The notes beneath the pieces were generated by a model. It was not told the origin of the DNA. It worked only from the letters and a program-made list of their open reading frames with translations, and ran no database searches. Shown here piece after piece: positions 837 through 53,491 of a stretch of 64,000 bases of DNA. Origin of the DNA: Candidatus Omnitrophota bacterium. GTDB taxonomy: Bacteria > Omnitrophota > Gorgyraeia > B26-G9. The stretch lies in contig JBDRJV010000037.1 in assembly GCA_043814605.1 (NCBI GenBank), positions 31,899 through 95,898 of the forward strand. Reading direction: 5' to 3'. Every line of letters begins with the position of its first letter. The first letter of the stretch is position 1. The position numbers and the translations under genes were made by a program.

Positions 837-2510
837 ATGAGAGAAACTATAAATTTAAAACAAAACATAGATTCAAATAAAACATTTATAACTTTGCTTG
901 CTGTATTATTAGCATTCCACTTTTTTAGTAATGCTTATTTATTAACCAAAAATCCCTTACCAGAAGGTAAGGACAGTTATGCGCACATTATGGGTTATTT
1001 GAATTTTTCTGATATTTTACAACAACGAACCAAGAGTTTATTTTACCAACCAGAGAAAAGTTTATTTTATAACATATTTTTTTCTGTTTTTGACTATCCG
1101 GTATTTTTTTATTTAACTGTTTTTTTTATAAATATGATTTTCGGTAATTTTATATTTTATTGTATAATTTTTACTTCAACAGTATTTTTTTTACTGCTGT
1201 TAATCGCAGTTTATAAAATCGGATGTTTTCTCAACCCGCAAACAGGTATTTTAGCTGCGGTAATTTGTTCTTCTTTCCCGATTGTTTTTATTACAGCGCG
1301 ACATTTTAATTTAGAAATAGCTCTGAGTGCTTTAGTTTGTGTAAGTATCTGGATGCTATTAAGAACAAATTTTTTTACAGAACGCTTATTTTCTATTTTA
1401 CTGGGTATTATTTTAGGTTTAGGGATGTTAACGAAACAGTCTTTCCTGATATATGTTTTAGGACCGATCGCCATAATTTTATACAAATGTTTAGTAGTTC
1501 GCGATCGCGATATATTTTTTACAAGCATTAGGAATATTATTTTTTGCTTTGCAATTGCACTGCTTTTAAGCTTTTATTTTTATAGCCAAGGCGATATTTA
1601 TATGAATATTAACACAAGAATAAACTTTACTGGTGCAGTTAACGGCAATAATATTTTTCAAACACAACATTTGATGTATTATGTAAAATCATTAACATTA
1701 AGTTTAGGCTGGGGATTTACTTTGCTGTTAATATTTTCTTTATTTAGTATCAGGAAAATTACTCAACCGCTGCGGTTTTTACTAATTGCCTGGTTTATAT
1801 TTCCGTTATTAGTTTTTACTTTTATAAAAATTAAATATACTGAATATTCTATTGCCTATCTACCGGCAGCAGCGATAATTTCCGGATCAGCAATCAGTTT
1901 AATTAGAAATATTAAATTAAAAAAAATTTTAATAATTAGTATTTTAGTTATGGCTACAGTGAATTTTTTTATGTTATCTTATTTTAATTTTAAATCATTT
2001 TTTACCACATATTATTACCAAAATCTCAAAGGGGAACTTATTGAGAGTGATCAGATCACTGGGATAAGTCAGATCGAAAGGAAAACAGAATTTAAGGATT
2101 TGTTAAAAAAATTAGGCAATTCTGGCAAAGCAATAGGAATTTTTTATGATGATATAAACCTGCAATTCCCGGCTTATTTCACCAGGTTTATTAGTGTAGA
2201 AACAAAAAAACAAGTTCAAATATTGGATATGCTATTTCGCATCCCTTTATTTTTCAACAAGTTAGATCGGATTGACAGTTTAATTTTTGTTTCCTGCTCA
2301 GGGCAGGATTGGATCAGCGAGAAATCTTTTTTTAAGTTTGAGCAGGATTTAAATAAACAAACTTTTTACAGATACAAATTTAGACCGTATTTTTTGGAGA
2401 GAATCCTGGCGGCTAAAAAAAATTTTATATTAACGCACAAACTAGGTTTTGAAACCACAGGGAATAAATTGCAAAAGGAAAATATTTTTATTTATAAAAG
2501 GATGCCTTAA
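837..2510 (+). CDS. Polytopic GT-C-type glycosyltransferase (ArnT/PMT_2-like)
   Basis: 557 aa with many hydrophobic helices over the first ~380 aa, then a soluble C-terminal domain. The first loop contains an acidic residue (PLPEGKDSYAH). The architecture is typical of polyprenol-phosphate-sugar-dependent GT-C enzymes. It starts 4 bp after the previous gene. Confidence 0.5.
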   Translation: MRETINLKQNIDSNKTFITLLAVLLAFHFFSNAYLLTKNPLPEGKDSYAHIMGYLNFSDILQQRTKSLFYQPEKSLFYNIFFSVFDYPVFFYLTVFFINMIFGNFIFYCIIFTSTVFFLLLLIAVYKIGCFLNPQTGILAAVICSSFPIVFITARHFNLEIALSALVCVSIWMLLRTNFFTERLFSILLGIILGLGMLTKQSFLIYVLGPIAIILYKCLVVRDRDIFFTSIRNIIFCFAIALLLSFYFYSQGDIYMNINTRINFTGAVNGNNIFQTQHLMYYVKSLTLSLGWGFTLLLIFSLFSIRKITQPLRFLLIAWFIFPLLVFTFIKIKYTEYSIAYLPAAAIISGSAISLIRNIKLKKILIISILVMATVNFFMLSYFNFKSFFTTYYYQNLKGELIESDQITGISQIERKTEFKDLLKKLGNSGKAIGIFYDDINLQFPAYFTRFISVETKKQVQILDMLFRIPLFFNKLDRIDSLIFVSCSGQDWISEKSFFKFEQDLNKQTFYRYKFRPYFLERILAAKKNFILTHKLGFETTGNKLQKENIFIYKRMP

Positions 2511-3572
2511 ATGCTGCAAAGTATATATTTTCAATTAAATAATTTTATGGCTTTTTACAATCTTTTTTCAGTACGGCAAGCAGCCAGTTTTTTACAAAAT
2601 TTGCCGTTATCAATTAATTTATTGAGAACGGCAAAGTGTAATTTAAATTGCCGGATTTGCTCAGCTAAAGACATGCTTAATATAGGGAATGAATTAACCA
2701 CGGGTGAAATCATCAGCTTTATTGAAAAAAATGCAGAGTATAAACCGATTTTTTTTATCGGAGGAGGAGAACCTTTTATCCGTAAGGATATCCTGGAATT
2801 TGCCAGAGTGTTCAGCCGGAATAAATTAAAATACGGGATTGTTACTAATGGGACTTTGCTTAATCCCGAAATTATGGGTGAATTGTTCAATAATAAATTA
2901 AATGTGCTGATTTTTTCTTTACATGGCAATCAGCTGCAGCATGATAAGGTGACCGGTAAAAGTGGGGCATATAGTTTAATTAGTAATAATATAAAATTTG
3001 CTGCGAAAAATAAGAAAAGTACTAAAATAATTTTAAATTTTGTAATAAATGAGGAGAATTATTTACAGCTTGAGCAAATTATTAAATTTGGAAAAAATCA
3101 AGGAGTAAATCAAGTAAGAATTGAGCATTTAATTTTTTTAACAAAAAATGAATACAAGCAGCATTTAGAAGTTTGCCGGAAACTTTTTCCAAAGAACAAT
3201 ACAAATCTTGTAATTTTTAAAAAGGATATTAATAATTTGGAAATTGGTGATTTTTTAAAAAAAGAGATACCTCGCTTAAAAAAGAAATACAAAAATTTTG
3301 TTTTATTTAAACCGCATTTGAGTCAAGCTGAAATTGAATCATGGTATTGTGAGAATTTTCAATTAAATCGTAAGTGTTTTTTTGTGCAGCATTCAGTTTT
3401 TGTAAACCCAAACGGAGATATTGTTCCCTGTCAGTTTTTAGGAAATTATAAACTAGGGAATATCAAGGAGGTTGAGTTAGTTGATGCCTGGCGAAATAAA
3501 GCCAGTCAAAATATTAAAAAAACTTTAAAGCAAAAGATTTTACCCGGATGTAACCGATGCTGTAAATTATGA
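2511..3572 (+). CDS. Radical SAM enzyme with C-terminal SPASM/twitch-like Cys-rich domain
   Basis: CxxxCxxC motif in RTAKCNLNCRICSAK and a GGE motif in FIGGGEPFIRKD. C-terminal cysteines occur in NPNGDIVPCQFL and LPGCNRCCKL. Confidence 0.8.
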   Translation: MLQSIYFQLNNFMAFYNLFSVRQAASFLQNLPLSINLLRTAKCNLNCRICSAKDMLNIGNELTTGEIISFIEKNAEYKPIFFIGGGEPFIRKDILEFARVFSRNKLKYGIVTNGTLLNPEIMGELFNNKLNVLIFSLHGNQLQHDKVTGKSGAYSLISNNIKFAAKNKKSTKIILNFVINEENYLQLEQIIKFGKNQGVNQVRIEHLIFLTKNEYKQHLEVCRKLFPKNNTNLVIFKKDINNLEIGDFLKKEIPRLKKKYKNFVLFKPHLSQAEIESWYCENFQLNRKCFFVQHSVFVNPNGDIVPCQFLGNYKLGNIKEVELVDAWRNKASQNIKKTLKQKILPGCNRCCKL

Positions 3573-4118: not shown

Positions 4119-5555
4119 ATGATAAATCAGTTAAAACAAAAAAAAAATAATTCAGAACTTTTAGTGTTTACAGTAATTTTAGCCTGTGGATTTTTTATGC
4201 GGCTTTTTTCTTTAATAAATTCAGATAATTTCCATGGTATTGCGGCAGGTAAAATTTTTGAAGCTCGTTATTTGCTCAAACATCCAGAGGAGCTTTGGGC
4301 TTGGATTGTCCCGGCCCATGGGCCGGTGCATTTATACTTGATCGCAATTTTATTTAAAATATTTGGTGATTATATAATTATTGCAAGATTAATAAGTTTA
4401 TTTTCCGGAGTGGCCTTATTTTTTCCCTATTATAAACTGATCAAACTTTCCTTCAGCAGAGATATTGCGCTTTTTAGTTGTTTTATCGCAGCTTTTTTTT
4501 ACTTACATGTAATTTATAGTGTGATTTCGACTGCGGAATCAATTTTTATTTTATTTTTATTTTCGGGGTTGTATTTTTATTTTAAATATTTCCAAAGTCA
4601 AAGAGTTTTTGAGTTGATAATTTCTGCGCTTTGTGTAGGAGTTTCAAGTATGTGTCGATTTGAAGGAGGGTTATACATAGTTTTATTAAGTGCTTTTTTA
4701 ATAAAAAAACCAAAAATAATGTTGATTTTTTTAATAAGTTCCTGTATGTTGCCTTGGGTTTGGATAGTTTTTAATTTTATTTTGTACGGCGATTTTTTCT
4801 ATTTTTTAACATCAAGCGATAATATCGTAAAGTATGAATTTGATAACCTAAAAGTTTACGGAACTCAATATACAATAACCGAGAGAATTTTATATTGGCC
4901 AATGGTATTAAAAGGGTATTTTGGAAATATATTATTTATTTTCGGTATAATCGGGCTTTGGTCTAATTTTCGCAACGCTAAAACTAAACTGCTGTTAGTT
5001 CTATTCCTGAGTATTTTAGGTTTTTTTATTTTTAAAACTTTTTATAAAGAACTGGCAATGCAGCCGCGTTATGGATTAAGTCTCGGATGCTTATTCATCC
5101 CGTTTATTGCAGATGCCTTATTAACTGGCTATACAAGAGTAAAAAAAATTTCCAAAAATTTAATACTGGCTCGGGATCAATTTAAAATGCTATTTTTTTT
5201 AATTCTTTTTTATATAGTAATAAGAGGATCATATTTAAGTTTAGTGCAATTACCGCATACTCCTCTCTGGGTAGAGAAAACAGCTAAATTTCTTGCTGCT
5301 AATGTAGACGAAAATAAAAATGAATTAGTGTATATTGATTCTGATGATGATAATTTTATAGAGCCGATTAAAATTTTATCGGGACTGGATGTGGACAGTT
5401 TTGTGGATATGCAGGCAGAAGGAACACATAAAGAATTGATTGAATCAGCTTCTTTAAAAAATATTAAATATCGTATTTTAATTTCAAAAACCAGGAATCT
5501 TAATTTAAAACAAATTTTTCAAGCTTCTGATTGTAAAATTTATAAAATAAAGTAA
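4119..5555 (+). CDS. Polytopic GT-C-type glycosyltransferase (paralogue set with 5561 and 8297)
   Basis: 478 aa and multi-TM, with a soluble C-terminal domain. First-loop motif is SDNFHGIAAGK. It shares CRFEGG and QPRYGLSLG blocks with the next gene. Confidence 0.5.
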   Translation: MINQLKQKKNNSELLVFTVILACGFFMRLFSLINSDNFHGIAAGKIFEARYLLKHPEELWAWIVPAHGPVHLYLIAILFKIFGDYIIIARLISLFSGVALFFPYYKLIKLSFSRDIALFSCFIAAFFYLHVIYSVISTAESIFILFLFSGLYFYFKYFQSQRVFELIISALCVGVSSMCRFEGGLYIVLLSAFLIKKPKIMLIFLISSCMLPWVWIVFNFILYGDFFYFLTSSDNIVKYEFDNLKVYGTQYTITERILYWPMVLKGYFGNILFIFGIIGLWSNFRNAKTKLLLVLFLSILGFFIFKTFYKELAMQPRYGLSLGCLFIPFIADALLTGYTRVKKISKNLILARDQFKMLFFLILFYIVIRGSYLSLVQLPHTPLWVEKTAKFLAANVDENKNELVYIDSDDDNFIEPIKILSGLDVDSFVDMQAEGTHKELIESASLKNIKYRILISKTRNLNLKQIFQASDCKIYKIK

Positions 5556-9676: not shown

Positions 9677-9689
9677 ATTGTTAATAAAA

Positions 9690-10781
9690 ATGAAAATAAT
9701 TTTTATCACGCGAGAATCTAAAGAAATGCCAGCAGTGCGAGTCCGCAGCTATGGGTTTGCAAAATTTTTAGAAAAAGCAGGGTATGAAACTATAATTTTC
9801 TCTTATGCTGATAATTTAATGGCTGGAAGCGGAAAAAAAGAGGATAAGTTAAGTATTTTTGACAAAATTAAATATAATTTTAAAACTCTAAAATATCTTT
9901 CTTCTCAGAAAGCAATTTTAGTTTTACAAAGATGTAATTACCATTCTTTTGCGCCCTTACTGCTGGCATTATTGAACCGGAATAAGTTAATTTTCGACCT
10001 GGATGATTGGGAAGCGCGTGAAGATATTCATTATTATTTTAATAAAATCCCTAATTCAAAAGCAATAATTCTCTTATCGCTAATTGCGAGAAAGAGTAAA
10101 TTATGTATCGGCGCAAGCGATTTTTTATGTGAGTTTCTTTTGAATTATAATAAAAATATTTTAAAAATACCAACAGGTGTGGATGTGGAAAATTTTAAGC
10201 CGGATAAAAAGGATAATAATTTACAGCATATAGTATTGTCTTGGATTGGGACTATTTACCGCAAGGATAATCTGGAAAATTTAAAATTTCTTATAGATTG
10301 TTTTCAGGAGCTGTTTGCAGAATTTAATAATATCAGGCTTGAAATCGCCGGAGAGGGTATTTATGCAGATAAATTAATCGCGCTAATTAAAAATATTAAT
10401 AATCAAGATATCATTTTTAAAAACTGGATTAGTCCTGCGAAAATGCCGGATTATCTAAAGAATGTTGATATTGGCGTTATGCCTTTAACCCAAAATTCAA
10501 AATTTAATAAAGCGAAAAGCCCCACCCGCTTGTTTGAATATATGGCGATGGAAAAGGCAGTGGTGGCTAGTACTGTGGGAGAAGCACAAAAGATTATTAA
10601 AAACGGGGAAAATGGATTTTTAGCATCGACAAAAAGTGAGTTTGTTGCGTGCCTAAAAAAATTAATAGAAAATGAGCAGTTAAGGTTAACAATTGGCAGG
10701 TTCGCACGTAAAACAGTAATTGCAGATTATAATTTAAATAAAATTCCGGAAAAATTATTAGAATATATAGGGAAGATATAA
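9690..10781 (+). CDS. GT-B fold glycosyltransferase (GT4/GT1-like)
   Basis: The C-terminal block PTRLFEYMAMEKAVVASTVGEAQKIIKNGENGFL matches the E-x7-E nucleotide-sugar-binding region. ATG at 9690 is preferred over the TTG at 9678. Confidence 0.75.
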   Translation: MKIIFITRESKEMPAVRVRSYGFAKFLEKAGYETIIFSYADNLMAGSGKKEDKLSIFDKIKYNFKTLKYLSSQKAILVLQRCNYHSFAPLLLALLNRNKLIFDLDDWEAREDIHYYFNKIPNSKAIILLSLIARKSKLCIGASDFLCEFLLNYNKNILKIPTGVDVENFKPDKKDNNLQHIVLSWIGTIYRKDNLENLKFLIDCFQELFAEFNNIRLEIAGEGIYADKLIALIKNINNQDIIFKNWISPAKMPDYLKNVDIGVMPLTQNSKFNKAKSPTRLFEYMAMEKAVVASTVGEAQKIIKNGENGFLASTKSEFVACLKKLIENEQLRLTIGRFARKTVIADYNLNKIPEKLLEYIGKI

Positions 10782-12253: not shown

Positions 12254-13143
12254 TTGAAATCAGCATTGTTATTGTAACTTATTCTGCAGAGAAATTCATA
12301 AAAAATTGTTTAGATTCTGTTTTTGCGCAGGATTTAAATAATTTTGAAGTTATTATTATTGATAATAACTCTGGCGATAATACTATTAATATCTTAAAGA
12401 AATATTTGTCAAAAATAATTTTAATAGAAAATAAAAAAAATGAGGGTTTTTGTTTCGCAACTAATCAAGGCATATTACTTGCAAAAGGAAAATATATATT
12501 TACTTTAAATAGCGATGTTTACTTAAGTAAGGACTACGTTTTAAATTTAAAAAATTTTTTAGAAAGAAATTTAGAAGCAGGCATGGCAGGGGGTAAATTG
12601 TTAAGAATGGATAAAATAACTATCGATACTATCGGCCTAAAATTGGGGGTTTTTTATCGGTTCTTAAATATCGCAGAATCGGAGAAAGATACGGGTAAAT
12701 ATAAAGTTCCTTTAGAAATTATGGGTCCTTGTGCAGCCGCGGCCTTATATAAGCGGGAGCTTTTAGAGAGTATTAGATATAAGGATGAATTTTTTGATAA
12801 TCAGTTTTTTTTCTTGGCTGATGATTTTGATATTGCCTGGCGGGCACAGCGAATAGGTTGTAAGGGGTTTTATGTTCCAAATGCAGTTTGCTGGCATTAC
12901 CGGGATAGTTCAGGGCATAAATCCCAGTTCAAACAATACCTTTCATTCAGAAACAGGTATTATTTATTGATTAAAAATGCGGGTTTTAAAACTGTTTTTT
13001 TGTTTGCATTAGGTTTTTTATTTTATGATTTTCCCAGGCTGGTTTTTCTTTTAATAACTAATACTAAGTATACAGCGAAAGCAATAGCGGAAATTTTTAT
13101 GAATATGCCTGAAATTTTATCAAAGCGTGTAAAAAAAATATGA
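12250..13143 (+). CDS. GT2 glycosyltransferase (rhamnosyltransferase-like)
   Basis: ISIVIVTYSAEKFIKNCLDSV..VIIIDNNSGDNT, TLNSDV and DDFDIAWRAQRIGCKGFYVPNAVCWH match the family. Paralogue of 49120-50097. Confidence 0.8.
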   Translation: MIEISIVIVTYSAEKFIKNCLDSVFAQDLNNFEVIIIDNNSGDNTINILKKYLSKIILIENKKNEGFCFATNQGILLAKGKYIFTLNSDVYLSKDYVLNLKNFLERNLEAGMAGGKLLRMDKITIDTIGLKLGVFYRFLNIAESEKDTGKYKVPLEIMGPCAAAALYKRELLESIRYKDEFFDNQFFFLADDFDIAWRAQRIGCKGFYVPNAVCWHYRDSSGHKSQFKQYLSFRNRYYLLIKNAGFKTVFLFALGFLFYDFPRLVFLLITNTKYTAKAIAEIFMNMPEILSKRVKKI

Positions 13144-22284: not shown

Positions 22285-22286
22285 TT

Positions 22287-23339: not shown

Positions 23340-23387
23340 CTTTTATTTGCAAAAGTAATAAAATTTATTTTTAAGGAGATTTTAGCT

Positions 23388-31851: not shown

Positions 31852-31865
31852 AAAGAGGAAAACTA

Positions 31866-35222: not shown

Positions 35223-35227
35223 CTAAA

Positions 35228-36715: not shown

Positions 36716-36738
36716 GTAGTGATCAGTAAGGATAAATA

Positions 36739-38918: not shown

Positions 38919-38924
38919 AGAATC

Positions 38925-40139: not shown

Positions 40140-40166
40140 TTATTAAATTGTTGCATATTTATAAGT

Positions 40167-43166: not shown

Positions 43167-43234
43167 TCTAAATTATGGGAAAAATTTATTACTTAATACG
43201 ATTAAATAAAAAATTGAAAATTTATTAAAAATAT

Positions 43235-44644
43235 ATGAGAGTTCAATTTATTTTTCCGCCTTATACGCATAAAAAATTTGAAGAGGACATTTCAATTGTC
43301 AGCCGTAGATTTGGTATTTTCCCGCCGTTAGGGCTTGCATTTGCGGCGGCTATTTTAGAGGCACAGGGACATTGTGTGGATATTATTGATGCGCGGGCTT
43401 CGAATCTATCAAAAGAGCAGACACTGCAAAGAATAAAATATTTTCAGCCTAAATTACTGGGATTTATGCTCACGTTTTATATGTTTCATGATACTTTAGT
43501 CTGGATTAAATTTTTTAAAGAAAAAACTAATATCCCGATTATTGTCGGTAATGTATTAATGGAGTTTTTCCCGCAGGACGTGATGGCGTATCCTGAGATT
43601 GATTATGGAATTATTGGCTCCGCGCAAAAAAATTTACCGCTACTCATAGAATTTTTGGAAAATAATAAAAATATCGAAAACATTAGTGGGCTTTGTTATC
43701 GTAAAGATGGACAAGTAATTATTAATAAACCCAAAGAATTATTTGAGGATTTTCAGACTTTGCCTTTTCCGGCAAGGCATTTATTGCCTAATCATAAGTA
43801 CCATGCGGTAATGTCAAAACGTAAAAATCTTACGATAATGGTTACAACCCGTGGATGTGCCGCTAGCTGTAATTTCTGTCATATTAAAGATATTAAATAT
43901 TCAGCTAGGTCAGCCCAGATGGTTGTGGATGAAATGCAAGAGTGTTATGAAAAATTTAATGTGCGTGAAATTGAAATATTTGATCCTACTTTCAATATGG
44001 ATAAACGCAGAGTGATGGATATTTGCCAAGGCATAGTTGATAGAAAACTGGATATTGATTGGGCTTGCCGTGCGAGAATTGATTGCATGAACCCAGAAAT
44101 GTTGAAAATTATGTGTCAGGCTGGGTGCAAAAGAATATTATACGGGATTGAATCAGGCGATGAAAATATTCTTAAAAAAATTAAGAAAGGAATAAATTTA
44201 TCACAAATTAGAGATACGATTAAAGCTACCCAAGATTTAGGAATAAAGGCATTAGGATTTTTTCTTTTAGGGAGTCCCGGAGATAGTTTAAAAACTATTA
44301 ATAAAACAGTTAAATTTGCTAAAGAATTAAAGCTTGATTATGCGCAATTTCATAAAACAATAGCAAAACCTGGAACCGAATTGTACGACCAAGTTAAGAA
44401 TTATACAGGACGCGATTTATGGAGAGAATATATTCTAGGTAAATATCCAGAATCAAGATTACCTACGCCTTGGACAGATTTATCAGCTCAAACCATAGAG
44501 CAGTGCACTTATCAAGCGTATCGAAAATTCTATTTTAGAATTGGTTACCTCTGGCAAACTCTTAGAGGAATAAAATCATTTCATGAATTTAAGAGATACC
44601 TAGCTTCTTTTTTTGGTTTAATTTTTGAAAAACGGGATTATTAA
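43235..44644 (+). CDS. B12-binding-domain radical SAM enzyme (subfamily B)
   Basis: FPPLGLAFAAAILEAQGHCVDIIDA, LLGFML, LPFPARHLLPNHKY, VTTRGCAASCNFCHIKD and ILYGIESGDENIL. Confidence 0.8.
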   Translation: MRVQFIFPPYTHKKFEEDISIVSRRFGIFPPLGLAFAAAILEAQGHCVDIIDARASNLSKEQTLQRIKYFQPKLLGFMLTFYMFHDTLVWIKFFKEKTNIPIIVGNVLMEFFPQDVMAYPEIDYGIIGSAQKNLPLLIEFLENNKNIENISGLCYRKDGQVIINKPKELFEDFQTLPFPARHLLPNHKYHAVMSKRKNLTIMVTTRGCAASCNFCHIKDIKYSARSAQMVVDEMQECYEKFNVREIEIFDPTFNMDKRRVMDICQGIVDRKLDIDWACRARIDCMNPEMLKIMCQAGCKRILYGIESGDENILKKIKKGINLSQIRDTIKATQDLGIKALGFFLLGSPGDSLKTINKTVKFAKELKLDYAQFHKTIAKPGTELYDQVKNYTGRDLWREYILGKYPESRLPTPWTDLSAQTIEQCTYQAYRKFYFRIGYLWQTLRGIKSFHEFKRYLASFFGLIFEKRDY

Positions 44645-44659
44645 AAGGAATTAATTTAA

Positions 44660-46144
44660 ATGAAAATAATGTTTTATTATTCTGCCTTTGAAAATTTAGG
44701 CATTGAATATCTTTCTGCAGTTTTAAAACAATCCGGACATAAAACCCGCCTTCTCTTTGATCCGGGTTTATTTAACGACCCTTTTTTGAGTATTAAACCA
44801 TTGGCTAAAATTTTCAACTGGGAGAAAAAATTATTACGTGAATTTACCCAATACAATCCGGGTTTAGTAGCCTTTTCTGTGACGAGTTCAACTTATTTAG
44901 CCGCATTGGATTTTTCAAAAAAACTTAAAAAAATAACGAAAATTAAAATAGTTTTTGGCGGGATCCATGCCAGTGCAGTGCCAGAGGTTGTTATAAAGGA
45001 TGATGCAGTTGATTACTTAATTGTGGGTGAAGCAGAAGAAGCTTTATTGGAACTAGTCGAGGCATTAGAAAACAATAAACCGATTAATAGCATTAAAAAT
45101 CTGTGGTATAAAGATAGGTATAAAATCTTTAATAATTCTTTAAGAGACTATATTACTGATCTTGATAAACTTCCATTTCCAGATAAGGATCTTTATTATG
45201 ATCAAATTCCTGAATATAGAAGCGGGTATACAATAATTACCCGCCGGGGTTGTCCGAATCATTGTGCTTATTGCCATAATAGTTTATGGCATAAATTATA
45301 TAAAGATTATGACAGTGAAATTGTCCGGTACCGAGGGGTAGATAATGTAATTACAGAGTTAAAACAGGCAAAAAAAAAGTATAATTTTAAAAGGGTTCGC
45401 ATAAACGATGAAATTTTTACTCTTAATGAAGGCTGGTTAAAGGAATTCTCTGCAATGTATAAGAAATATATTAATCGGCCAATGTTCTGTTTTGTTAGTC
45501 CTCATACTGTAAACGAAAAAACTGTAGAATGTTTAAAAGCTATGAATTGTTATCAGGTTTGTATGGGTGTGCAAACTCTAAATGAAGAAAAGAATAGAAT
45601 CTTGTTAAACCGCAATCAAACTAATAATCAGGTAAAACAGGCAATTAAATTATTTCGTGAATATAAAATTCGTTGTGTTGTGGATAATATAATTGGTTTA
45701 CCTGGTGAAAAGGAAGAAGATTTATTGCAGATGGCAAGGTTTTATAATAATAACCGTCCCGATAGGATTTGTATTTTTTGGCTGATTTATTTCCCTGGGA
45801 CAAAAATTATAGATGCAGGATTAGAAAAAGAGGTGCTTAACCAAAAAATGCTAGAAGAAATTAAAACAAATCCGCAAGCTACAGCGAATACTATCTATAG
45901 TCTGTTACATGAAAGGGGCAAGAATAAGTATTATATTTTGCTTCTGCTGATACATTTTTTACCTAAAAATATTATTGATTTTATCATAAAGAAAAGATTA
46001 TTTGAATTATTTTCATTATTAAACCCCTCGTTGATTGAAATCCCTTTTACGATGATTGCTCGGGACAGATTAGATATAGTCAGACGCAGATATTATTCAC
46101 GTTATATCAAATATGGAATTAAAAAATTATTTTTAGTTGGATAA
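44660..46144 (+). CDS. B12-binding-domain radical SAM enzyme (subfamily A)
   Basis: MKIMFYYSAFENLGIEYLSAVLKQSGHKTRLLFDPGLF, VFGGIHASAVPE, LPFPDKDLY, ITRRGCPNHCAYCHNS and FLPKNIIDFIIKKRLF. Confidence 0.8.
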   Translation: MKIMFYYSAFENLGIEYLSAVLKQSGHKTRLLFDPGLFNDPFLSIKPLAKIFNWEKKLLREFTQYNPGLVAFSVTSSTYLAALDFSKKLKKITKIKIVFGGIHASAVPEVVIKDDAVDYLIVGEAEEALLELVEALENNKPINSIKNLWYKDRYKIFNNSLRDYITDLDKLPFPDKDLYYDQIPEYRSGYTIITRRGCPNHCAYCHNSLWHKLYKDYDSEIVRYRGVDNVITELKQAKKKYNFKRVRINDEIFTLNEGWLKEFSAMYKKYINRPMFCFVSPHTVNEKTVECLKAMNCYQVCMGVQTLNEEKNRILLNRNQTNNQVKQAIKLFREYKIRCVVDNIIGLPGEKEEDLLQMARFYNNNRPDRICIFWLIYFPGTKIIDAGLEKEVLNQKMLEEIKTNPQATANTIYSLLHERGKNKYYILLLLIHFLPKNIIDFIIKKRLFELFSLLNPSLIEIPFTMIARDRLDIVRRRYYSRYIKYGIKKLFLVG

Positions 46145-46177
46145 ATATTAAATTGATCAAAGTATCAGGATAAAATT

Positions 46178-47167
46178 ATGAATTCAGGATTATTGAATAT
46201 ATTAAAAATTGTTAGAATTTTTTTTAAAGTAAAATTTTTTAGAAATAAAATTCCTATTTTTGTGGGCTGGGATTTAACTTACAGGTGTAACTTTAATTGT
46301 CAATATTGTAAAATTCCGAAACTTGATACCGATCGAGAATTGTCAACGGATAAGGTGTTAAAAATGATAGATCAGTTTAGTAAACTTGGTGTTTGCCGTA
46401 TACATTTTGGTGGGGGAGAGGTTCTATTACGAGATGATCTTGATCAAATTTTAAAATTTTGTAAAAAAAGAAATATTTATACTGTTATTCTCACAAATGG
46501 AGCTTTATTTGAAGCTAAGATACCTGTTATAAAGAAAGCAAATCTAATAAAAGTAAGTTTTGATGGTCCTGCTAAAATTCATGATAATTTGCGTCATAAG
46601 GGGTCTTATAGTCAGATTGTTAAAGTATTAGTTTTAGCAAAAAAACTTAAAATAAAAGTAACGTTAAGTGCAACTTTAACTAGAAAAAATTATGAATATA
46701 TTGATTATATTTTAGATTTTGCTAAAGAAAATAGGACCCCAGTAAAATTTCAGTTAGTTAATGAGTTCTTGTCAGGATCTAAAGACATTGCTAATCTTAA
46801 GCTTTCCCGAGAGCAGCAGCAGAAGGCAATGGGAAAATTATTAAAGGAAAAAAAGAGGAGCGGGTATATAATAAATTCTAAAAATGCACTGGAGTATATG
46901 CGTGATTACCCAAATGTAAAAAATTTATGTTGTACGGCAGGAAAGCTTTATGTGCGTGTTTCTGTTGATGGAAGGCTATATCCGTGCGAAATACTAAAAG
47001 ATGAGTTTTTAAAAAATACATCTTTTGAAAAAGATATCGGTAAATCATTCAAAGTATTAAAAAATGTTAATTGTAAATATTGTTTATGTACTACAACATT
47101 AGAATTAAATCAATTATTTTCTTTAAATTTAAATGCAATTTTTAATGGGCTAAAGTATTTTAGTTAA
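46178..47167 (+). CDS. Radical SAM enzyme with SPASM/twitch-like C-terminus
   Basis: WDLTYRCNFNCQYCKIP and FGGGEVLLRDD are present. C-terminal cysteines occur in CCTAGKLYVRVSVDGRLYPCE and VNCKYCLCTT. Similar to 22287-23339. Confidence 0.75.
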   Translation: MNSGLLNILKIVRIFFKVKFFRNKIPIFVGWDLTYRCNFNCQYCKIPKLDTDRELSTDKVLKMIDQFSKLGVCRIHFGGGEVLLRDDLDQILKFCKKRNIYTVILTNGALFEAKIPVIKKANLIKVSFDGPAKIHDNLRHKGSYSQIVKVLVLAKKLKIKVTLSATLTRKNYEYIDYILDFAKENRTPVKFQLVNEFLSGSKDIANLKLSREQQQKAMGKLLKEKKRSGYIINSKNALEYMRDYPNVKNLCCTAGKLYVRVSVDGRLYPCEILKDEFLKNTSFEKDIGKSFKVLKNVNCKYCLCTTTLELNQLFSLNLNAIFNGLKYFS

Positions 47168-47387
47168 AATTTAATATGGCTAAGAACTAATTCTATATTA
47201 AGAATTATAGAAGAACTTTTCCGTGTTATTAATAAAAAAATGGTTCGATTGTGGAAACAAAGTTTAACGTTTTTTTTCGACAATATTGCTTTTGTATTTT
47301 TAGAATTGATAAACGAATCTTCAATTAGAAATAAGAACTGTAGTTTAAAAGTAATTTTTTTATTACCAACACTATGGAGGATGAAGT

Positions 47388-48833
47388 TTGAAAATATTAC
47401 TTATAGTTGAGGAAACTTTTTATATGGATAGACTGGGCATTTTATATTTAAGTTATCCTCTAAAGCGTTTCAACTATGATGTCAAACTTGCTGTTTTTGC
47501 TAAAGAGGGGTTTCCAGGAATAGAACAAATAATGCAAGAATATTCTCCGGATATTGTTGGTTATAGTATGATGACTGGTGAGTATAATACGCTTAATAGA
47601 GTAAATAAGTATTTAAAAAATAAATTTAATTTTTTATCAGTTTTTGGAGGTCCTCACCCGACATTTTATCCGGATTTAATTAAAGAATCCCATATTGACG
47701 CAATTTGTGTAGGAGAGGGAGATATTGCTTTTGCGGAGTTTTGTCGGAGAGTTAAAGAGAGCGATAAATATTGGCAAACTCCAGGGTTTTATGTAAAGCA
47801 TAATGGTAATATTTTTAGTAATCCACTATTATCTTTAGTTAAAGATTTAGACCAATTATCTTTTCCAGATAGAAAATTAATGTATGAGGCCCAACCTGAT
47901 GTCTATGAAGATGGAACCAAAGTTTTTATATCTTCTCGTGGATGCCCTTATAGTTGTTCATATTGTTTTAATAAAAAATATAATGATATTTATAAAAATA
48001 AGTCAATTGTAGTTCGTCATCGTTCGCCTAATAATGTAATTCAGGAAATTGATGCTACTAAGCAGGAATACGGATTAAGACATGTATTTTTTTTAGATGA
48101 TATTTTTACGATAAAACCTAAGGGATGGGTAGAAGAGTTTTCAACACTATATAAGCAAAAGATTGATCTGCCGTTTTCTTGTCACGTACGTGCAAATCTG
48201 GTAAGCGATAGTGAGATAAAACTATTAAAAAATGCCGGCTTAAATTCAGTTTTAATCGGAATAGAATGTGGGGATGAGAGAGTATCAAATGAAGTGTTAA
48301 ATAGAAATTTATCGAATAAAATAATTTTTCAAGCAATACAAATTTTAAAAAAACATGATATTAAAATATGGACACATAATTTATTGGGGATCCCAGTTAA
48401 GGATAGTTTCGAAGTAGGAATTAAAACGCTTGATATGAATTTAAAAATAAGACCAGTTTATGCCCATTCAGGCTTACTTTTTCCTTATCCTGGGACTGAA
48501 ATTCGGAAGCAATCATTACGAAATAATTTTTTGAATGAAAATAGTGTTTTTTTTGAAACTCATCAAAAATATTCAGTTTTTAATTTTAATAAAAAAGAAA
48601 AATCTCAGATTGAAAGATTGCATTATTTATTTGGATTAACAGTTCGTTTTCCTTTTTTACGTAAAATAATTAGATTGCTTGTAAAAATTCCTTTATCAGG
48701 ATTTTATTTTATGATTTTTTATGTTTGGTATGGATACAATCTTAAATTTAAATTTTTTCCCATGCAGTCTTGGACAAAAGAAATAAAAAAATATGTCAAA
48801 TTAGGGGAAAAGATACTAAAAAAACATAATTAA
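47388..48833 (+). CDS. B12-binding-domain radical SAM enzyme (distant member of subfamily A)
   Basis: TTG start, with the RBS-like ggagga ending 6 nt upstream of it. MDRLGILYLSYPLKRFNYDVKLAVF, VFGGPHPTFYP, LSFPDRKLMY, ISSRGCPYSCSYCFNK and LIGIECGDERVSNEVL. Confidence 0.75.
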   Translation: MKILLIVEETFYMDRLGILYLSYPLKRFNYDVKLAVFAKEGFPGIEQIMQEYSPDIVGYSMMTGEYNTLNRVNKYLKNKFNFLSVFGGPHPTFYPDLIKESHIDAICVGEGDIAFAEFCRRVKESDKYWQTPGFYVKHNGNIFSNPLLSLVKDLDQLSFPDRKLMYEAQPDVYEDGTKVFISSRGCPYSCSYCFNKKYNDIYKNKSIVVRHRSPNNVIQEIDATKQEYGLRHVFFLDDIFTIKPKGWVEEFSTLYKQKIDLPFSCHVRANLVSDSEIKLLKNAGLNSVLIGIECGDERVSNEVLNRNLSNKIIFQAIQILKKHDIKIWTHNLLGIPVKDSFEVGIKTLDMNLKIRPVYAHSGLLFPYPGTEIRKQSLRNNFLNENSVFFETHQKYSVFNFNKKEKSQIERLHYLFGLTVRFPFLRKIIRLLVKIPLSGFYFMIFYVWYGYNLKFKFFPMQSWTKEIKKYVKLGEKILKKHN

Positions 48834-49119: not shown

Positions 49120-50097
49120 ATGAATAAAACTGTAAGCGTTCTGATTACCTCTAAGGAAAATAAATCTGAACAACTGAAGCATTTGCTGCATAGCTTGGTG
49201 GTTCAGGATATTCGATACCTAAGAATTTACTTAATTTTAGATCGCAAAAATGATCTATTAATTAATGATATCCAAAAAATATTAAAACCAGTGGAATTTT
49301 TTTTTAATGATAACCATTGTATTACTTATATTCAAAATAAAATTATGAAAAATTTAAATAGTGAATTAATTTTGTTATTAAATGATGATATTATATTAGA
49401 AAATTATTTTATTTCTAGTTTAACTGATTCAATTGATAAGAATGAAAAAATAGGTATTTGCTGTGGGAAAATAAAGCGTATGGATAAAATAACTATTGAT
49501 AGCGCAGGGCAATTTTTAGCCCGGAGTCGAAAACCACTAGATAGGGGTTATGGTCAAAAAGATAAAGGGCAGTTTGATAGTGCAGAATATATTTTTGGAG
49601 CTTGTGGGGCAGCAGTTTTGTATCGTAAAAAAATGCTAGAAAGTATTCAAATAACTCCGGGTGAATATTTTGATAATGATTACCATCTATTTTACGAGGA
49701 TTTAGATATTGCCTGGCGGGCGCAAAACTTAGGCTGGAAGGTATTTTATGATCCAAAAGCTGTTTGCTATCATGTTCGCGGAGCTACAGTAAAACAAAAT
49801 AAACCAAAATTTAGTTTTTTAAACAATTTTAATTTTGCTTGGCTTCCGAATAGTTTGAAGGTAGATGTAATAAAAAACCGTTATATGACTATAATAAAAA
49901 ATGATAAATTAAGTAATTTTTTAATTAATTTACCTTTCATTTTATTTTATGATCTTAAAGTTTTTATTTACTGCTTATTTTTTTGCCCGATTGTCATTAA
50001 AAATTGCTTAAATAAAGTGCCTTTGATTATGAACGCTTGGAAAAAAAGAAAATATTACTACTTAAAATATGAAAAAATAAGACAGAAGGAATGCTAA
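49120..50097 (+). CDS. GT2 glycosyltransferase (paralogue of 12250-13143)
   Basis: VSVLITSKEN, LLNDDIIL, MDKITIDSAGQFL and EDLDIAWRAQNLGWKVFYDPKAVCYH, collinear with MDKITIDTIGLKL and DDFDIAWRAQRIGCKGFYVPNAVCWH in the other copy. Confidence 0.75.
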   Translation: MNKTVSVLITSKENKSEQLKHLLHSLVVQDIRYLRIYLILDRKNDLLINDIQKILKPVEFFFNDNHCITYIQNKIMKNLNSELILLLNDDIILENYFISSLTDSIDKNEKIGICCGKIKRMDKITIDSAGQFLARSRKPLDRGYGQKDKGQFDSAEYIFGACGAAVLYRKKMLESIQITPGEYFDNDYHLFYEDLDIAWRAQNLGWKVFYDPKAVCYHVRGATVKQNKPKFSFLNNFNFAWLPNSLKVDVIKNRYMTIIKNDKLSNFLINLPFILFYDLKVFIYCLFFCPIVIKNCLNKVPLIMNAWKKRKYYYLKYEKIRQKEC

Positions 50098-51755
50098 AAA
50101 TAATAAATTATTTAGGATTAATTCTTTTAATTTTTAGGCCGTTTATTTGCGAACAAGTTTTTCCCGTTTGTGGAATTATGTTTAATCTAGTCTTTACGGT
50201 AGTTTTTTTCTCGAAGTTAATTGTTGATAAAAATATTAAAACTAGTAAAACTATTGTAATCATTATTTTTTTTATTTTTGTGTTTTTTATATGCCAAATT
50301 ATTTTTTCTATAAATATTTATAACACCTGTAATGTTTTATGCTATTTATTTACTTTAGTTATAATTTATATGTTCGTTGATTCTTTAGAAAGTGAAAAAC
50401 AAGAATTCTTAATTAAAGCAATGGTTGCGATAAGTTTTATAATTGCTTTACGGGGAGCATATCAATATTTATTTGGTTTAAACTTGATCAATAAAATTTT
50501 TTCAGAAGAACAAATTGCAAAAGAAAGTTTGTATGCTTTTGAATTACTTAAGCGAAGAAGAATCGTTTCCTGGTTTACTACCCCAAATTTATTAGCCAGT
50601 TATTTACTTATGTTTATCCCGCTTGCTTTAGCTCAAATAGATTTCGATAAAAATAATATTTTAAAAGTCAAGAATATATTTTATTTTTTAGGTTTTATTT
50701 GTATATTTTTTGCGGTTTTGTTTGCTAAAGTTATTGCTGTTTATCTGGTAATTATTTTCTTAATTTCATGTTTTTTTATAAAAAAATTTACAATTAAATC
50801 TCAGATTGCCCATAAAAATAGTTTTTTGTTTATAGCCGCTTTTTTTGTGATTTCAGGCGGAGTTTTTTTTGCGGAACGAGCCAGTGCATTTTTACTCAAT
50901 GATATTAATAATTCAATAATTCAAAGATTATACTATTGGCAGGCAACTTTAAGGATAATAAAAAATAATTTATTCTTTGGGTTAGGGCTGGGAAATTTTG
51001 GGATTGTATATCCTTTTTACAAAAATAGTTACGCAAATGAAACCATATATGTACATAATAGTTATTTGCAATTGTTTGCTGAAACCGGAATTATATTTTT
51101 TCTAACTGCAGTTAGTTTACTAGGTTGCAGTTTGAGAAATTTATTTAAAAATGAAGATCAAAAGTTGACAATAGCTTTAAGTTTTAGTTGTGCGGCATTT
51201 TTAATCCATAATCTTGTCAGTTATTCTTTTTTTATTATGCAGGTTTGCTTTGTTTGGGTTGTGTTGTTTGCCTGTCTATTTTCAAAAGTTACTAACCGTG
51301 AGGAAAATTATAAAAAGCTTAAAAAACTATTCAATTTTTTAGTTAAGGCAGCTATTTCCTTCATAATAATTAGTAATGGTTTATTTTTAATTAGTGAAAT
51401 TAATCTTAAAAAAGGAATAGAATTATTAAAAAAAGCTCAATATGATCAGGCAAGGCAGAGTATAAAATATGCTTTAAATTTTATTCCTTTTAATGATGTT
51501 GCGTATTATTGTTTAGCAATTAATGCAAAGCGTGAAGCAAATAATAATTTTTCAAATGAAGTAGTTAAAAATTTTAAAAAAGCAATTATTCATAATCCGT
51601 ATTATGTATATTATTACTTTTATTTAGGCGAGTACTACAAGCAGCATGATTTTTTAGCATGGGCAAAAGATTATTTAGCTATGGCTTCTAGGCTATATCC
51701 GACAAATAAAAAATTTAGGATTGAATTGGATGCGGTTATCAAGAAGGGGCAGTAA
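50091..51755 (+). CDS. O-antigen ligase/polymerase-like (Wzy_C) membrane protein fused to a C-terminal TPR-like domain
   Basis: ~10 TM helices. The loop block GLGLGNFGIVYPFYKNSYANETIYVHNSYLQLFAETGIIFF matches the H-N-x-(Y/F)-L-x3-E-x-G signature of the family. The C-terminal ~150 aa is helical repeat-like (AQYDQARQSIKYALNFIP..AIIHNPYYVYYYFYLGEYYKQ). Confidence 0.65.
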   Translation: MLKIINYLGLILLIFRPFICEQVFPVCGIMFNLVFTVVFFSKLIVDKNIKTSKTIVIIIFFIFVFFICQIIFSINIYNTCNVLCYLFTLVIIYMFVDSLESEKQEFLIKAMVAISFIIALRGAYQYLFGLNLINKIFSEEQIAKESLYAFELLKRRRIVSWFTTPNLLASYLLMFIPLALAQIDFDKNNILKVKNIFYFLGFICIFFAVLFAKVIAVYLVIIFLISCFFIKKFTIKSQIAHKNSFLFIAAFFVISGGVFFAERASAFLLNDINNSIIQRLYYWQATLRIIKNNLFFGLGLGNFGIVYPFYKNSYANETIYVHNSYLQLFAETGIIFFLTAVSLLGCSLRNLFKNEDQKLTIALSFSCAAFLIHNLVSYSFFIMQVCFVWVVLFACLFSKVTNREENYKKLKKLFNFLVKAAISFIIISNGLFLISEINLKKGIELLKKAQYDQARQSIKYALNFIPFNDVAYYCLAINAKREANNNFSNEVVKNFKKAIIHNPYYVYYYFYLGEYYKQHDFLAWAKDYLAMASRLYPTNKKFRIELDAVIKKGQ

Positions 51756-51757
51756 AG

Positions 51758-53491
51758 ATGAATTATGCTAAGTATAAGGCTTTTTGCAGAGTAATATATT
51801 GTTATCAAGAATATTGGATTTGGATTGTTTTAGGTATAATAATAAATATTCTAATATTGTTTGTTGTTAATAAGCTTTTAGAAAAGAGTAAGAATTTAAG
51901 CATTAAAAAGTATATAAAAAAAATAAATTTAAATAGAATTGATTATTTATTACTTTTTATGCTAACATTTATTTTTTTTATTTGGAAAATTACTAATATT
52001 AGTAAAGAAAATGTTGATAGTATGGAATCTTTCAACATGCAATTTAATTCTTTATTGAGTACAAATATTATAAAGTTTTTAGATACTTCAATAGTAATTG
52101 CACATAAGTTGATTTATGCAGTTATGCTTAATCTTGTACAAATATTTTGTGCTCCTGAAAATTTAGTTTTTTTGTATAGATTTATTTCTTTTGGTTTTGG
52201 AGTATTATGTTCTTTACTGCTGTTTAAATTTTCAATCAGAGTATTTCAGAATAAATTGATTGCATACCTAGGGTTCATTTTATTCAACTTAAATGCGCTT
52301 TTTTTGTTTTATTGCCGAAGAATTGAAGTTTATTCTATATTTTGTTTTTTTGTATTATTAAGTTTTTATGATTTCTGGAGAATATTTATTGATCGGGATA
52401 AAAATAAGACCTTACGATATGGCATATGGATAATTATTGTATTTTGCTTACATGATACAGGCGTTGTAGTTATTTTTTCGCAGGCTCTTGCTTTATTTTT
52501 TTTAAACAGGAAGCAGCCACTTGAAACTAGAAATTATTTATATTTAAAGTTTATGCAATCGGTACTTGTTTTTGCTTGTTTATTTTTTTTGTTGGGACCT
52601 ATTTTTTGTGCATCAATTATTAGTAATCATTTAATTCTTTACAAAGGTGCTTGGGAAAATAATTTTTATTTAGGTATGGAAAAATTACCGGAACAAATAA
52701 ATACTATGCTGAATTTAATTTTTGGGATGCCCATATTTACGATAGGGCTATTTAGTTTTCCCTTATTTTTTGCAGTTTTTTCGTTAATTAAAAAAAATAA
52801 TAATTTTTTTTGGCTTTTATTAAGCATATTGATATCAAGTATTCTATTTCAGGCAACTTTCATTTATATGTTTTATATTAAAGTTAATGCTTGTTATTTT
52901 AATATTAGGCATTTATTATGGATAGTTCCCTTTATTATCATGATGTATAGTTTTGGTTTTTGTGATTTATGTTTTTTGAGTAATAAAAATTATAAGAAAA
53001 TTTTAGGGTACAGTTTTTTAATTATTATTTTAAGCTCAGGAATTGTGAAATCAAATACTGTTATTTATAGCAATAAAACTCCTGATTACGAGAAAGCATT
53101 TTATTATATTAAAGATAAATTCAAAGATGGAGATTTTTTAGGTTGGCTGTGTTCTTTTACCAGTGATGTATTTTTTATTCACACTAAAAAAAATGATATT
53201 TTTTATGATCATGATAATACCATTTTAGATGAAAGAAGTGCCGGGGTTATATTTAATAATATCGCTTTAAAGCAAAAAAAATTTAAAAGATTTTGGGTGA
53301 TTGTTGCAAAAGAAGATTATTTTGGAGTTGATCATATGAATTTGGAATTTATTGATAAATGCGTTAATTTTTTAAAAAAAGAATTTAAAGAAATTTCTTG
53401 CGTGAAGATGAATAAAATTGATATCTACTTATTTGAATCAACTAGGGAAAGACTGGGGGGTATAATTGAAATTAACAGAAGAATTTTTTAA
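51758..53491 (+). CDS. Polytopic GT-C-type glycosyltransferase (ArnT/PMT_2-like)
   Basis: 577 aa with more than 10 hydrophobic helices, followed by a ~150 aa soluble C-terminal domain. Same overall architecture as the other six GT-C candidates. Architecture-only call. Confidence 0.4.
   Translation: MNYAKYKAFCRVIYCYQEYWIWIVLGIIINILILFVVNKLLEKSKNLSIKKYIKKINLNRIDYLLLFMLTFIFFIWKITNISKENVDSMESFNMQFNSLLSTNIIKFLDTSIVIAHKLIYAVMLNLVQIFCAPENLVFLYRFISFGFGVLCSLLLFKFSIRVFQNKLIAYLGFILFNLNALFLFYCRRIEVYSIFCFFVLLSFYDFWRIFIDRDKNKTLRYGIWIIIVFCLHDTGVVVIFSQALALFFLNRKQPLETRNYLYLKFMQSVLVFACLFFLLGPIFCASIISNHLILYKGAWENNFYLGMEKLPEQINTMLNLIFGMPIFTIGLFSFPLFFAVFSLIKKNNNFFWLLLSILISSILFQATFIYMFYIKVNACYFNIRHLLWIVPFIIMMYSFGFCDLCFLSNKNYKKILGYSFLIIILSSGIVKSNTVIYSNKTPDYEKAFYYIKDKFKDGDFLGWLCSFTSDVFFIHTKKNDIFYDHDNTILDERSAGVIFNNIALKQKKFKRFWVIVAKEDYFGVDHMNLEFIDKCVNFLKKEFKEISCVKMNKIDIYLFESTRERLGGIIEINRRIF

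Follow-up and report, generated by a model that had tools for sequence, protein, structure and literature searches.

Why would a bacterium assign much of one DNA strand to a series of membrane glycosyltransferases, and what might these enzymes build? The question is raised by a window of 64,000 nucleotides (the whole stretch of DNA that was analysed) from an Omnitrophota bacterium that has not been cultured. Within this window, a gene array of 54 kb, all on one strand, does encode seven GT-C-type membrane glycosyltransferases and an O-antigen-ligase-like protein. A sequence-only reading had described the seven as polytopic proteins of 460–620 aa with a soluble C-terminal domain, and our ORF calls and Kyte–Doolittle scan bear it out. 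They are referred to below by the first coordinate of each:

837..2510, + strand: GT-C no. 1, ArnT-like PMT_2 protein, 557 aa, ~12 TM, 175-aa C-terminal domain
4119..5555, + strand: GT-C no. 2, GT39/PMT_2-type, 478 aa
5561..7057, + strand: GT-C no. 3, GT39/PMT_2-type, paralogue of 4119, 498 aa
8297..9676, + strand: GT-C no. 4, divergent GT39-type, 459 aa from ATG
15815..17362, + strand: GT-C no. 5, ArnT-like PMT_2 protein, 515 aa
18949..20805, + strand: GT-C no. 6, short YfhO-like protein, 618 aa (NCBI: 605)
51758..53491, + strand: GT-C no. 7, very divergent PMT_2-type, 577 aa, with an extra N-terminal helix and an alpha/beta C-terminal domain

Two of these reading frames open further upstream, 8297 at TTG 8189 (495 aa; the NCBI call is 465 aa) and 15815 at TTG 15776 (528 aa). 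By the Kyte–Doolittle scan, each of the seven has 8–12 hydrophobic segments, and the last is followed by a non-hydrophobic tail of 100–175 aa, to which 18949 adds one terminal TM. Elsewhere in the window, just one ORF (50091–51755) has at least eight TM segments. Scans of the window for Rfam families and tRNAs were empty. Between 41 and 56.5 kb, promoter-like sites were fewer, and terminator-like sites modestly more numerous, than expected from shuffled sequence, and neither scan gave a usable operon boundary.

Fold, lineages and the loop-1 acid

Enzymes of the GT-C_A class have a polytopic membrane domain of 7–13 TM helices (PMC11127046) and a conserved N-terminal module of seven TM helices, with juxtamembrane helices in loop 1 (PMC12041299). 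All seven proteins are polytopic in this sense, and likeness to solved GT-C_A enzymes in the 7-TM module and the loop-1 juxtamembrane helices was found. Structure prediction covers two of them, 18949 and 51758, whose AF2 models have ~13 helices each. The top structural matches include STT3, PglB, AglB, Pmt4, AftA, AftB and AftD; PIG-U and GAB1 are also structural neighbours.

Sequence profiles reach part of the set. The Pfam model PMT_2 (PF13231; CAZy GT39/GT83-type) has a gathering threshold of 26.1 bits, which is passed by 837 (33.4), 4119 (55.7), 5561 (35.1) and 15815 (33.5). The MIR domains of eukaryotic PMTs are absent. By themselves 8297 and 51758 go undetected and, together with 18949, they had no Pfam match at E up to 0.1; NCBIfam scores of the GT-C and Arn-type candidates are all far under the equivalog cutoffs. 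Searches of the PDB with five family profiles (A1, A2, A3, A5 and A6) found no GT-C, and among family profiles that of 837/15815 was alone in reaching ArnT, weakly, so structure prediction was needed. Alignment with hhalign was uninformative with shallow alignments of 2–3 sequences, and became decisive once these were deepened. HMM searches, profile alignments, AF2 models and structural matches together uphold the GT-C reading first made from the sequence, for all seven proteins by fold and homology. For three of the seven, neither Pfam nor NCBIfam gives a match to the protein itself, and this might have favoured transporters or O-antigen polymerases instead; the analysis refutes that idea, also for the three unannotated ORFs, and it is almost certainly wrong.

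The seven fall into three lineages: ArnT-like, GT39/PMT_2-like and YfhO-like. The first comprises 837 and 15815, which are related to one another (E 1.5e-6) and whose joint profile gives a colinear match to ArnT 5EZM (E 0.0016). The GT39/PMT_2-like lineage is built around 4119, the family of which NCBI names ‘glycosyltransferase family 39 protein’. Its paralogue 5561 is 35% identical (E 1.6e-63), and 8297 is ~25% identical to both (E ~3e-13), scores 356 bits against the family HMM, has an orthologue with a weak PMT_2 match in one related locus (L004), and occurs fused to DegT in another (L020). For 51758, 14 of 23 family members match PMT_2, and the 4119 and 51758 types have in common a family-specific C-terminal domain. 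The YfhO-like protein, 18949, consists of ~12 TM, a beta-rich domain (427–590) and a C-terminal TM (593–615). Three of eight scanned homologues pass the Pfam YfhO model (PF09586; threshold 28.5 bits, 835 positions) at 29.9–38.2 bits, across model positions ~19–399 only; 18949 itself has no match. NCBI assigns one homologue to the YfhO family. Directly upstream there is always the following gene, which matches nothing in Pfam or NCBIfam and holds the same position in three related loci (L001, L002 and L008):

18132..18968, + strand: conserved protein with an N-terminal TM

GT-C_A enzymes depend for catalysis on an acidic residue in the first extracytoplasmic loop, at the tip of juxtamembrane helix 1 (PMC12041299). 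Six of the seven proteins conserve this acid, its position being judged by sequence and secondary structure. The sequence-only reading had picked out the motifs GKDSYAH (837), PPDEMA (15815) and SDNF/TDTF/SDNF (4119/5561/8297), and the Asp is indeed kept in the family alignments: D46 of 837, with which the loop-1 Asp of 15815 aligns, is invariant (7/7), and D36 of the 4119/5561/8297 family is conserved to at least 90% across 25 sequences. Of the two proteins in which that reading had located no acid, 51758 has one: E90, at the N-terminal tip of the first juxtamembrane helix, is invariant (23/23), and is preceded by D87 (16 Asp and 2 Glu of 23). In 18949 the candidates are partly conserved (D43, 8/15; E85, 12/15), and no residue at the start of helix 55–74 is conserved. 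One or more of the seven could be non-catalytic GT-C-fold proteins—scaffold, acceptor-binding or flippase-associated, like PIG-U/GAB1 or archaeal Agl23—with fewer than seven transfer steps as a result. The weak loop 1 of 18949 would fit, as would the presence of PIG-U and GAB1 among the structural neighbours, a very weak match of 4119 to the Agl23 model (E 0.035), and the lack of a dedicated flippase gene in the window. The Agl23 match is far under its cutoff, however, and six of the seven keep both the (near-)invariant acid and conserved Arg/His positions, and we regard this explanation as very improbable.

Neighbouring genes and conservation across the phylum

The surrounding genes include the following:

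7050–8282 and 31866–32933: two DegT aminotransferases (Pfam DegT_DnrJ_EryC1)
9678..10781, + strand: cytoplasmic GT-B glycosyltransferase (Pfam Glycos_transf_1)
12250..13143, + strand: GT2 (GT-A) glycosyltransferase with a C-terminal hydrophobic segment (Pfam Glycos_transf_2)
14833..15675, + strand: polysaccharide deacetylase family protein (Polysacc_deac_1, 75.8 bits, and DUF3473), of ArnD’s fold family
20818..48833, + strand: radical-SAM-rich block (Radical_SAM with B12-binding, Zn_ribbon_HMPTM or SPASM; Pfam)
38154..38918, + strand: candidate polyprenyl-phosphate sugar synthase of 254 aa, a GT2 without TM whose catalytic domain is ArnC/GtrB/DPMS-like
38925..40139, + strand: DegT/ArnB-type sugar aminotransferase (Pfam DegT_DnrJ_EryC1)
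49120–50097: second GT2 of the 12250 type (Pfam Glycos_transf_2)
50091..51755, + strand: Wzy_C-domain membrane protein (O-antigen ligase/polymerase family), 554 aa, 12 TM

The sequence of 38154 marks it as a candidate donor synthase within the locus itself. Its best PDB matches are ArnC (8VXH, E 4.7e-17), DPMS (5MLZ, 1.7e-9) and GtrB (5EKP, 2.6e-9); it scores 75 bits against NCBIfam ArnC (cutoff 529) and, unlike ArnC and GtrB, has no TM helices at its C-terminus. The 12250/49120-type GT2 proteins match generic GT-A enzymes in the PDB. The three DegT genes score 419, 249 and 308 bits, and two of them, with the ArnC-like GT2, are interspersed in the radical-SAM block. The Wzy_C protein (PF04932, 41.9 bits where 31.7 are required; 12 hydrophobic segments) belongs to a family whose match is common to ligases, polymerases and O-oligosaccharyltransferases (O-OTases), any of which it may be. 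Some 20 radical-SAM enzymes, with paralogy among their genes, lie beside the GT-C set; for the HMPTM type the best match is the model for Tes, the tetraether lipid synthase, at sub-threshold scores. Among the window ORFs we found neither a priming phosphoglycosyltransferase nor a flippase (GtrA/SMR/MATE/Wzx/ABC), and the latter could lie outside the window.

A search for related loci, using a profile from 11 closer sequences, found the multi-GT-C block in every one of the 13 species-level Omnitrophota loci recovered, so the clustering is not due to chance. Synteny is conserved, with one-to-one orthology: the GT-B gene at 9678 keeps its position in three loci (L004–L006), and the co-location of GT-C and radical-SAM genes is retained across related loci. 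Recent lineage-specific gene expansion was rejected by comparing orthologues; identity is 37–40% between 837 and its positional orthologues in L004–L006, 42–50% for 4119 and 42–46% between 5561 and its own orthologues. Searches of the literature turned up no account of this Omnitrophota locus.

A proposed assembly line outside the membrane

Set beside radical-SAM enzymes and conserved across the phylum, the GT-C set suggests that the cell surface carries an undescribed glycan, most of whose construction takes place outside the membrane. With a probability of roughly 0.6, we read the locus as a phylum-conserved envelope-glycan operon array in which the seven GT-Cs perform distinct outer-face transfers onto one growing glycoconjugate. 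Sugars would be tailored in the cytoplasm by the three DegT aminotransferases, methyltransferases, the deacetylase and, probably, many of the radical-SAM enzymes. The ArnC/GtrB/DPMS-like GT2 would load them onto polyprenyl phosphate, and it is the presence of this gene in the locus that suggests polyprenyl-phosphate sugars as donors. The lipid-linked monosaccharides would be flipped by a flippase encoded outside the window; the GT-Cs, differing in linkage or acceptor specificity, would add them at the outer face of the cytoplasmic membrane and, by analogy with known systems, in sequence on a single acceptor; and the Wzy_C protein may ligate or polymerise the product. The sequence-only reading had taken seven GT-Cs and a Wzy_C ligase to imply many distinct periplasmic transfer steps or acceptors, and fold and homology, the loop-1 acid in six of seven, and synteny lend weight to that view. 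Several observations count against the pathway: flippase and priming phosphoglycosyltransferase were both missing among the window ORFs; there is one clear candidate for a polyprenyl-P-sugar synthase to serve seven GT-Cs, and it has no C-terminal TM helices; and 18949, under every Pfam threshold, is without a strongly conserved loop-1 acid.

The seven could instead be independent decorators, each attaching one side-chain or aminosugar to its own ready-made envelope molecule (lipid A/core, as ArnT does, or O-antigen, as GtrC does), so that the locus would be several co-located three-component systems. The 837/15815 pair resembles ArnT, there are ArnB-, ArnC- and ArnD-like partners in the locus, and most GT-C systems known from bacteria carry out one-step decorations (PMC8035078, PMC11127046). 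Against this, three GT2 genes, one of them an ArnC-like synthase, face seven GT-Cs, and no flippase lies beside any GT-C. Optional decoration systems are usually variable or mobile. This set, however, is co-inherited in fixed order across 13 species, and for that reason one pathway fits better than seven optional decorations, which we consider unlikely. Less likely again is that protein glycosylation is the task of some or all of them, as PMT-, PglB- or DPY19-like enzymes with secreted or surface Omnitrophota proteins as substrates. The Pfam family takes its name from protein O-mannosyltransferases, the best structural matches include STT3, PglB, AglB and Pmt4, and the Wzy_C protein could be a PglL-type O-oligosaccharyltransferase.

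Known systems and significance

For the single-pathway reading, the closest working analogy is the assembly of mycobacterial arabinan or ALG assembly in the ER lumen, in which many GT-Cs draw on one lipid-linked donor or a few. In mycobacteria, EmbA/B/C and AftA–D, the arabinosyltransferases of arabinogalactan and LAM, are GT-C_A enzymes that build one glycan outside the membrane from a shared, pre-tailored, lipid-linked monosaccharide donor (PMC11127046, PMC12041299), decaprenyl-P-arabinose; AftA, AftB and AftD are among the structural matches here. The likeness stops short of kinship at the sequence level. The Omnitrophota enzymes are small (460–620 aa), no carbohydrate-binding-module domains were detected in them by Pfam, and the locus clusters its seven GT-Cs with a Wzy_C protein. 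The proposed tailoring also differs, involving radical-SAM, DegT and methyltransferase proteins here and, in mycobacteria, conversion of PRPP with epimerisation by DprE1/E2 (PMC11127046).

Two further comparisons are instructive. The ArnT pathway consists of an aminotransferase (ArnB), an Und-P transferase (ArnC), a deformylase (ArnD), a flippase (ArnE/F) and one GT-C (ArnT). The Omnitrophota locus has no ArnA or ArnE/F, an ArnC-like protein without TM helices, NCBIfam scores far under the equivalog cutoffs, and seven GT-Cs in place of one. GtrA/B/C and CsbB–GtcA–YfhO use the same logic of a GT2 lipid-sugar synthase and a GT-C, and 18949 is of the YfhO-like lineage; it differs in its length (~610 aa, matching the N-terminal half alone of the 835-position model), in the absence of a GtrA/GtcA flippase from the window, and in its host, a PVC-group bacterium and not a Firmicute.

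Taken singly, each GT-C adds a new member to a superfamily that is already known, and three that were deposited as ‘hypothetical protein’ (8297, 18949 and 51758) can now be assigned to GT-C. Because the HMPTM-type genes best match the Tes model, screens for lipid-biomarker producers by homology could mis-score such loci. For glycoengineering, the loci are a source of GT-C enzymes and of radical-SAM enzymes for tailoring sugars. A multi-GT-C assembly line would be the second natural example after mycobacteria. It is conceivable, if rather doubtful, that the pathway is specific to the phylum and undescribed, that the radical-SAM enzymes (class-B B12-dependent, HMPTM/Tes-like) remodel sugars, possibly lipid-linked ones, that the seven dedicated GT-Cs assemble the resulting unusual residues outside the membrane, and that an arabinan-like line evolved independently of Actinobacteria, with a glycan or glycolipid rich in C-modifications as its product. 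A fixed set of seven conserved GT-Cs among radical-SAM enzymes, confined to an uncultured nanobacterial phylum, implies a complex surface polymer of unusual chemistry, assembled mainly outside the membrane, with a bearing on how Omnitrophota build their envelopes and attach to hosts.

The seven GT-C proteins

All 49 open reading frames (ORFs) of at least 150 aa in the window lie on the + strand; G+C content is ~29%, with positive GC skew in all 2-kb bins. Scans of the window for tRNAs and Rfam families gave no match, and promoter and terminator scans over 41-56.5 kb were uninformative. A sequence-only reading had assigned seven of these ORFs, named here by start position, to the GT-C class of membrane glycosyltransferases, each with a multi-helix membrane part and a soluble C-terminal domain. 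All seven were found as described, except that 8297 and 15815 are the first internal ATGs of slightly longer, TTG-initiated ORFs.

Putative GT-C ORFs of the window
837-2510, + strand, 557 aa
4119-5555, + strand, 478 aa
5561-7057, + strand, 498 aa
8189/8297-9676, + strand, 495 aa from TTG, 459 aa from ATG
15776/15815-17362, + strand, 528 / 515 aa
18949-20805, + strand, 618 aa
51758-53491, + strand, 577 aa

By Kyte-Doolittle analysis, all seven comprise 8-12 hydrophobic segments and then a non-hydrophobic tail of 100-175 aa, followed in 18949 by one additional terminal transmembrane (TM) segment. Among the remaining window ORFs, at least eight TM segments occur only in 50091-51755, which passes Pfam Wzy_C (O-antigen ligase/polymerase family).

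Pfam, profile and structure comparisons bear out the GT-C call for all seven. Four ORFs exceed the PMT_2 cutoff of 26.1 bits (837, 33.4; 4119, 55.7; 5561, 35.1; 15776, 33.5), while 8189/8297, 18949 and 51758, deposited as hypothetical proteins, match no Pfam or NCBIfam model on their own. NCBI annotates the 4119 family as GT39. All-against-all BLASTP joins 4119 to 5561 (35% identity, E 1.6e-63), 8297 to both (~25% identity, E ~3e-13) and, weakly, 837 to 15776 (E 1.5e-6), and leaves 18949 and 51758 without relatives among the seven. Exhaustive HMMER searching found 48 relatives of 51758; PMT_2 matches 14 of 23 aligned members, and the family profile aligns with that of the 4119 family over 362 columns (hhalign probability 99.3%, E 1.4e-20). 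Every 18949 homologue with a source name (17/17) is from Omnitrophota; one carries the name 'YfhO family protein', and three pass Pfam YfhO, matching just the N-terminal half of that model. AF2 models cover 18949 and 51758. That of 18949 (pLDDT 78.2, pTM 0.83) has ~12 TM helices together with a beta-rich domain and one TM at the C-terminus, and its top 10 Foldseek matches are GT-C proteins at probability ≥0.99, against ≤0.25 for transporters. Finally, a profile of 837 and 15815 matches ArnT (5EZM) colinearly (E 0.0016). From these lines of evidence, we consider it very probable that all seven are GT-C-fold proteins of the families indicated. They represent at least three lineages: ArnT-like (837, 15815), GT39-like (4119, 5561, 8297 and, distantly, 51758) and YfhO-like (18949).

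In GT-C_A enzymes, the tip of the first juxtamembrane helix bears an acidic residue that is essential (PMC12041299). The loop-1 acids noticed by eye hold up in two groups: D46 of 837 (GKDSYAH) is invariant in seven of seven sequences, 15815 (PPDEMA) included, and D36 of 4119 (SDNF; TDTF in 5561, SDNF in 8297) recurs in ≥90% of 25 sequences. In 51758, where none had been identified by eye, E90 is present in 23/23 family members and the D87 position is acidic in 18/23; D87 lies just ahead of helix 88-102 and E90 in its first turn, the helix itself following TM 60-78. Candidates in 18949 are partly conserved only (D43, 8/15; E85, 12/15).

Conservation across Omnitrophota

Scanning species-representative genomes gave 13 loci, each from Omnitrophota, with 4-7 GT-Cs per 21 kb by family HMMs where flanks are long enough. 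The order that recurs in other Omnitrophota/PVC MAGs runs: ~258-aa unannotated protein, 837-type GT-C, radical-SAM-SPASM, methyltransferase, 4119-type GT-C, 5561-type GT-C, DegT, 8297-type GT-C, GT1, B12-radical-SAM, GT2, DUF362, unannotated protein and another GT-C. A second block recurs as WbqC, unannotated protein, YfhO-like protein and then radical-SAMs, and in an independent contig B12-radical-SAMs flank the 51758-type gene. Window GT-Cs are 33-50% identical to positional orthologues vs 22-35% to in-genome paralogues; the duplications are therefore ancient, and retention of every copy argues for distinct roles.

In several genomes the GT-C ~5-6 kb past the quartet, at roughly the slot of 15776, scores best with the 51758-type rather than the 837/15815-type HMM; GT-C types may have been swapped there. 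Two conserved, unannotated proteins keep fixed places. One (270-304 aa, N-terminal TM) is always immediately upstream of the YfhO-like GT-C, whose gene it overlaps by 20 nt in the window; it has no Pfam or NCBIfam match and is possibly an accessory subunit. The other (~241-259 aa, with a single TM in the window's copy and no family match) always precedes the 837-type GT-C.

Recurrent ORFs (L numbers, related loci in other genomes, own coordinates)
51758-type-scoring, cut by locus ends: L004 20708-21440; L010 12988-13740; L012 20623-21344; L013 20583-21401
Upstream of YfhO-like GT-C: window 18132-18968; L001 8175-9071; L002 9229-10041; L008 9053-9967
Ahead of 837-type GT-C: window 54-833; L004 5675-6451; L005 5974-6699; L006 5988-6764

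Radical-SAM genes and the locus edge

The same one-strand array contains 20 radical-SAM genes (2511-48833, dense from 20818 to 48833): 9 B12-binding (class-B type), 6 with N-terminal Zn_ribbon_HMPTM, 2 SPASM and 3 plain. Of the two gene sets, this one, whose co-location with GT-Cs is kept in other genomes, may be the more remarkable. Best models are tetraether synthase Tes for the HMPTM type, including four tandem paralogues at 23388-28855 (56-60% identity), and HpnJ/BchE/ladderane-lipid for the B12 type, all with scores far below cutoffs. Most of the proteins carry a single hydrophobic 19-mer close to the C-terminus. The 41973-43166 radical-SAM protein, encoded after the array's largest intergenic gap (381 bp), passes NCBIfam AmmeMemoRadiSam (231 bits vs cutoff 220); the window yielded neither an AMMECR1 nor a Memo partner. 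In L005 (1-454) and L006 (1-113), the DNA ahead of the conserved block encodes a ~1400-aa giant protein with B12-binding, radical-SAM and SPASM domains, and also a carbamoyltransferase; the window begins downstream of the corresponding stretch.

A dcw cluster adjoins the glycan array (54531-63130: mraZ, mraW, a small ORF, ftsI, murE, murF). murF is followed not by mraY but by genes for a DUF3108-like protein of 234 aa (sub-threshold match) and an unannotated protein of 482 aa.

A possible glycan assembly line

The GT2 protein 38154, encoded beside a DegT aminotransferase gene, has polyprenyl-phosphate sugar synthases as its nearest solved structures: ArnC (E 4.7e-17), DPMS and GtrB. It is the one clear donor-synthase candidate and is without TM helices. 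The locus has three DegT genes in total and also codes for WbqC, a deacetylase of the ArnD family, two methyltransferases, one GT1 and two GT2 besides 38154; the window contains no gene for a flippase or priming transferase. In L020 (JAKLQT010000227.1, 12928-15777), DegT (residues 44-446) and an 8297-type GT-C (473-930) are fused in a 949-aa ORF. The fusion, as read from sequence, is a Rosetta-stone link of aminosugar synthesis to this GT-C; it may instead be an assembly error. The ORF is uninterrupted and contains no N bases.

The ArnC-like GT2 beside DegT, the sugar-tailoring genes and the fusion suggest an assembly line. Tailored (amino)sugars would be put onto polyprenyl phosphate and flipped across the membrane; the seven GT-Cs, differing in specificity, would add them to one envelope glycoconjugate, and the Wzy_C protein would ligate or polymerise the product. 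The window's lack of a flippase and a priming transferase, and its single clear donor-synthase candidate without TM helices, count against this scheme. We give the mechanism roughly even odds; our overall figure, which weighs it together with the fold and family assignment, is 0.6.

The usual bacterial system comprises one GT-A, one flippase and one GT-C (PMC8035078, PMC11127046), whereas the Omnitrophota locus has seven co-inherited GT-Cs. That number is unusual but has a mycobacterial precedent: in arabinan synthesis, the nearest working analogy, one lipid-linked donor serves several GT-Cs (PMC11127046, PMC12041299). A literature search found no paper describing this locus. The enzymes are of known types; it is their conserved combination with ~20 radical-SAM enzymes in Omnitrophota that is undescribed.
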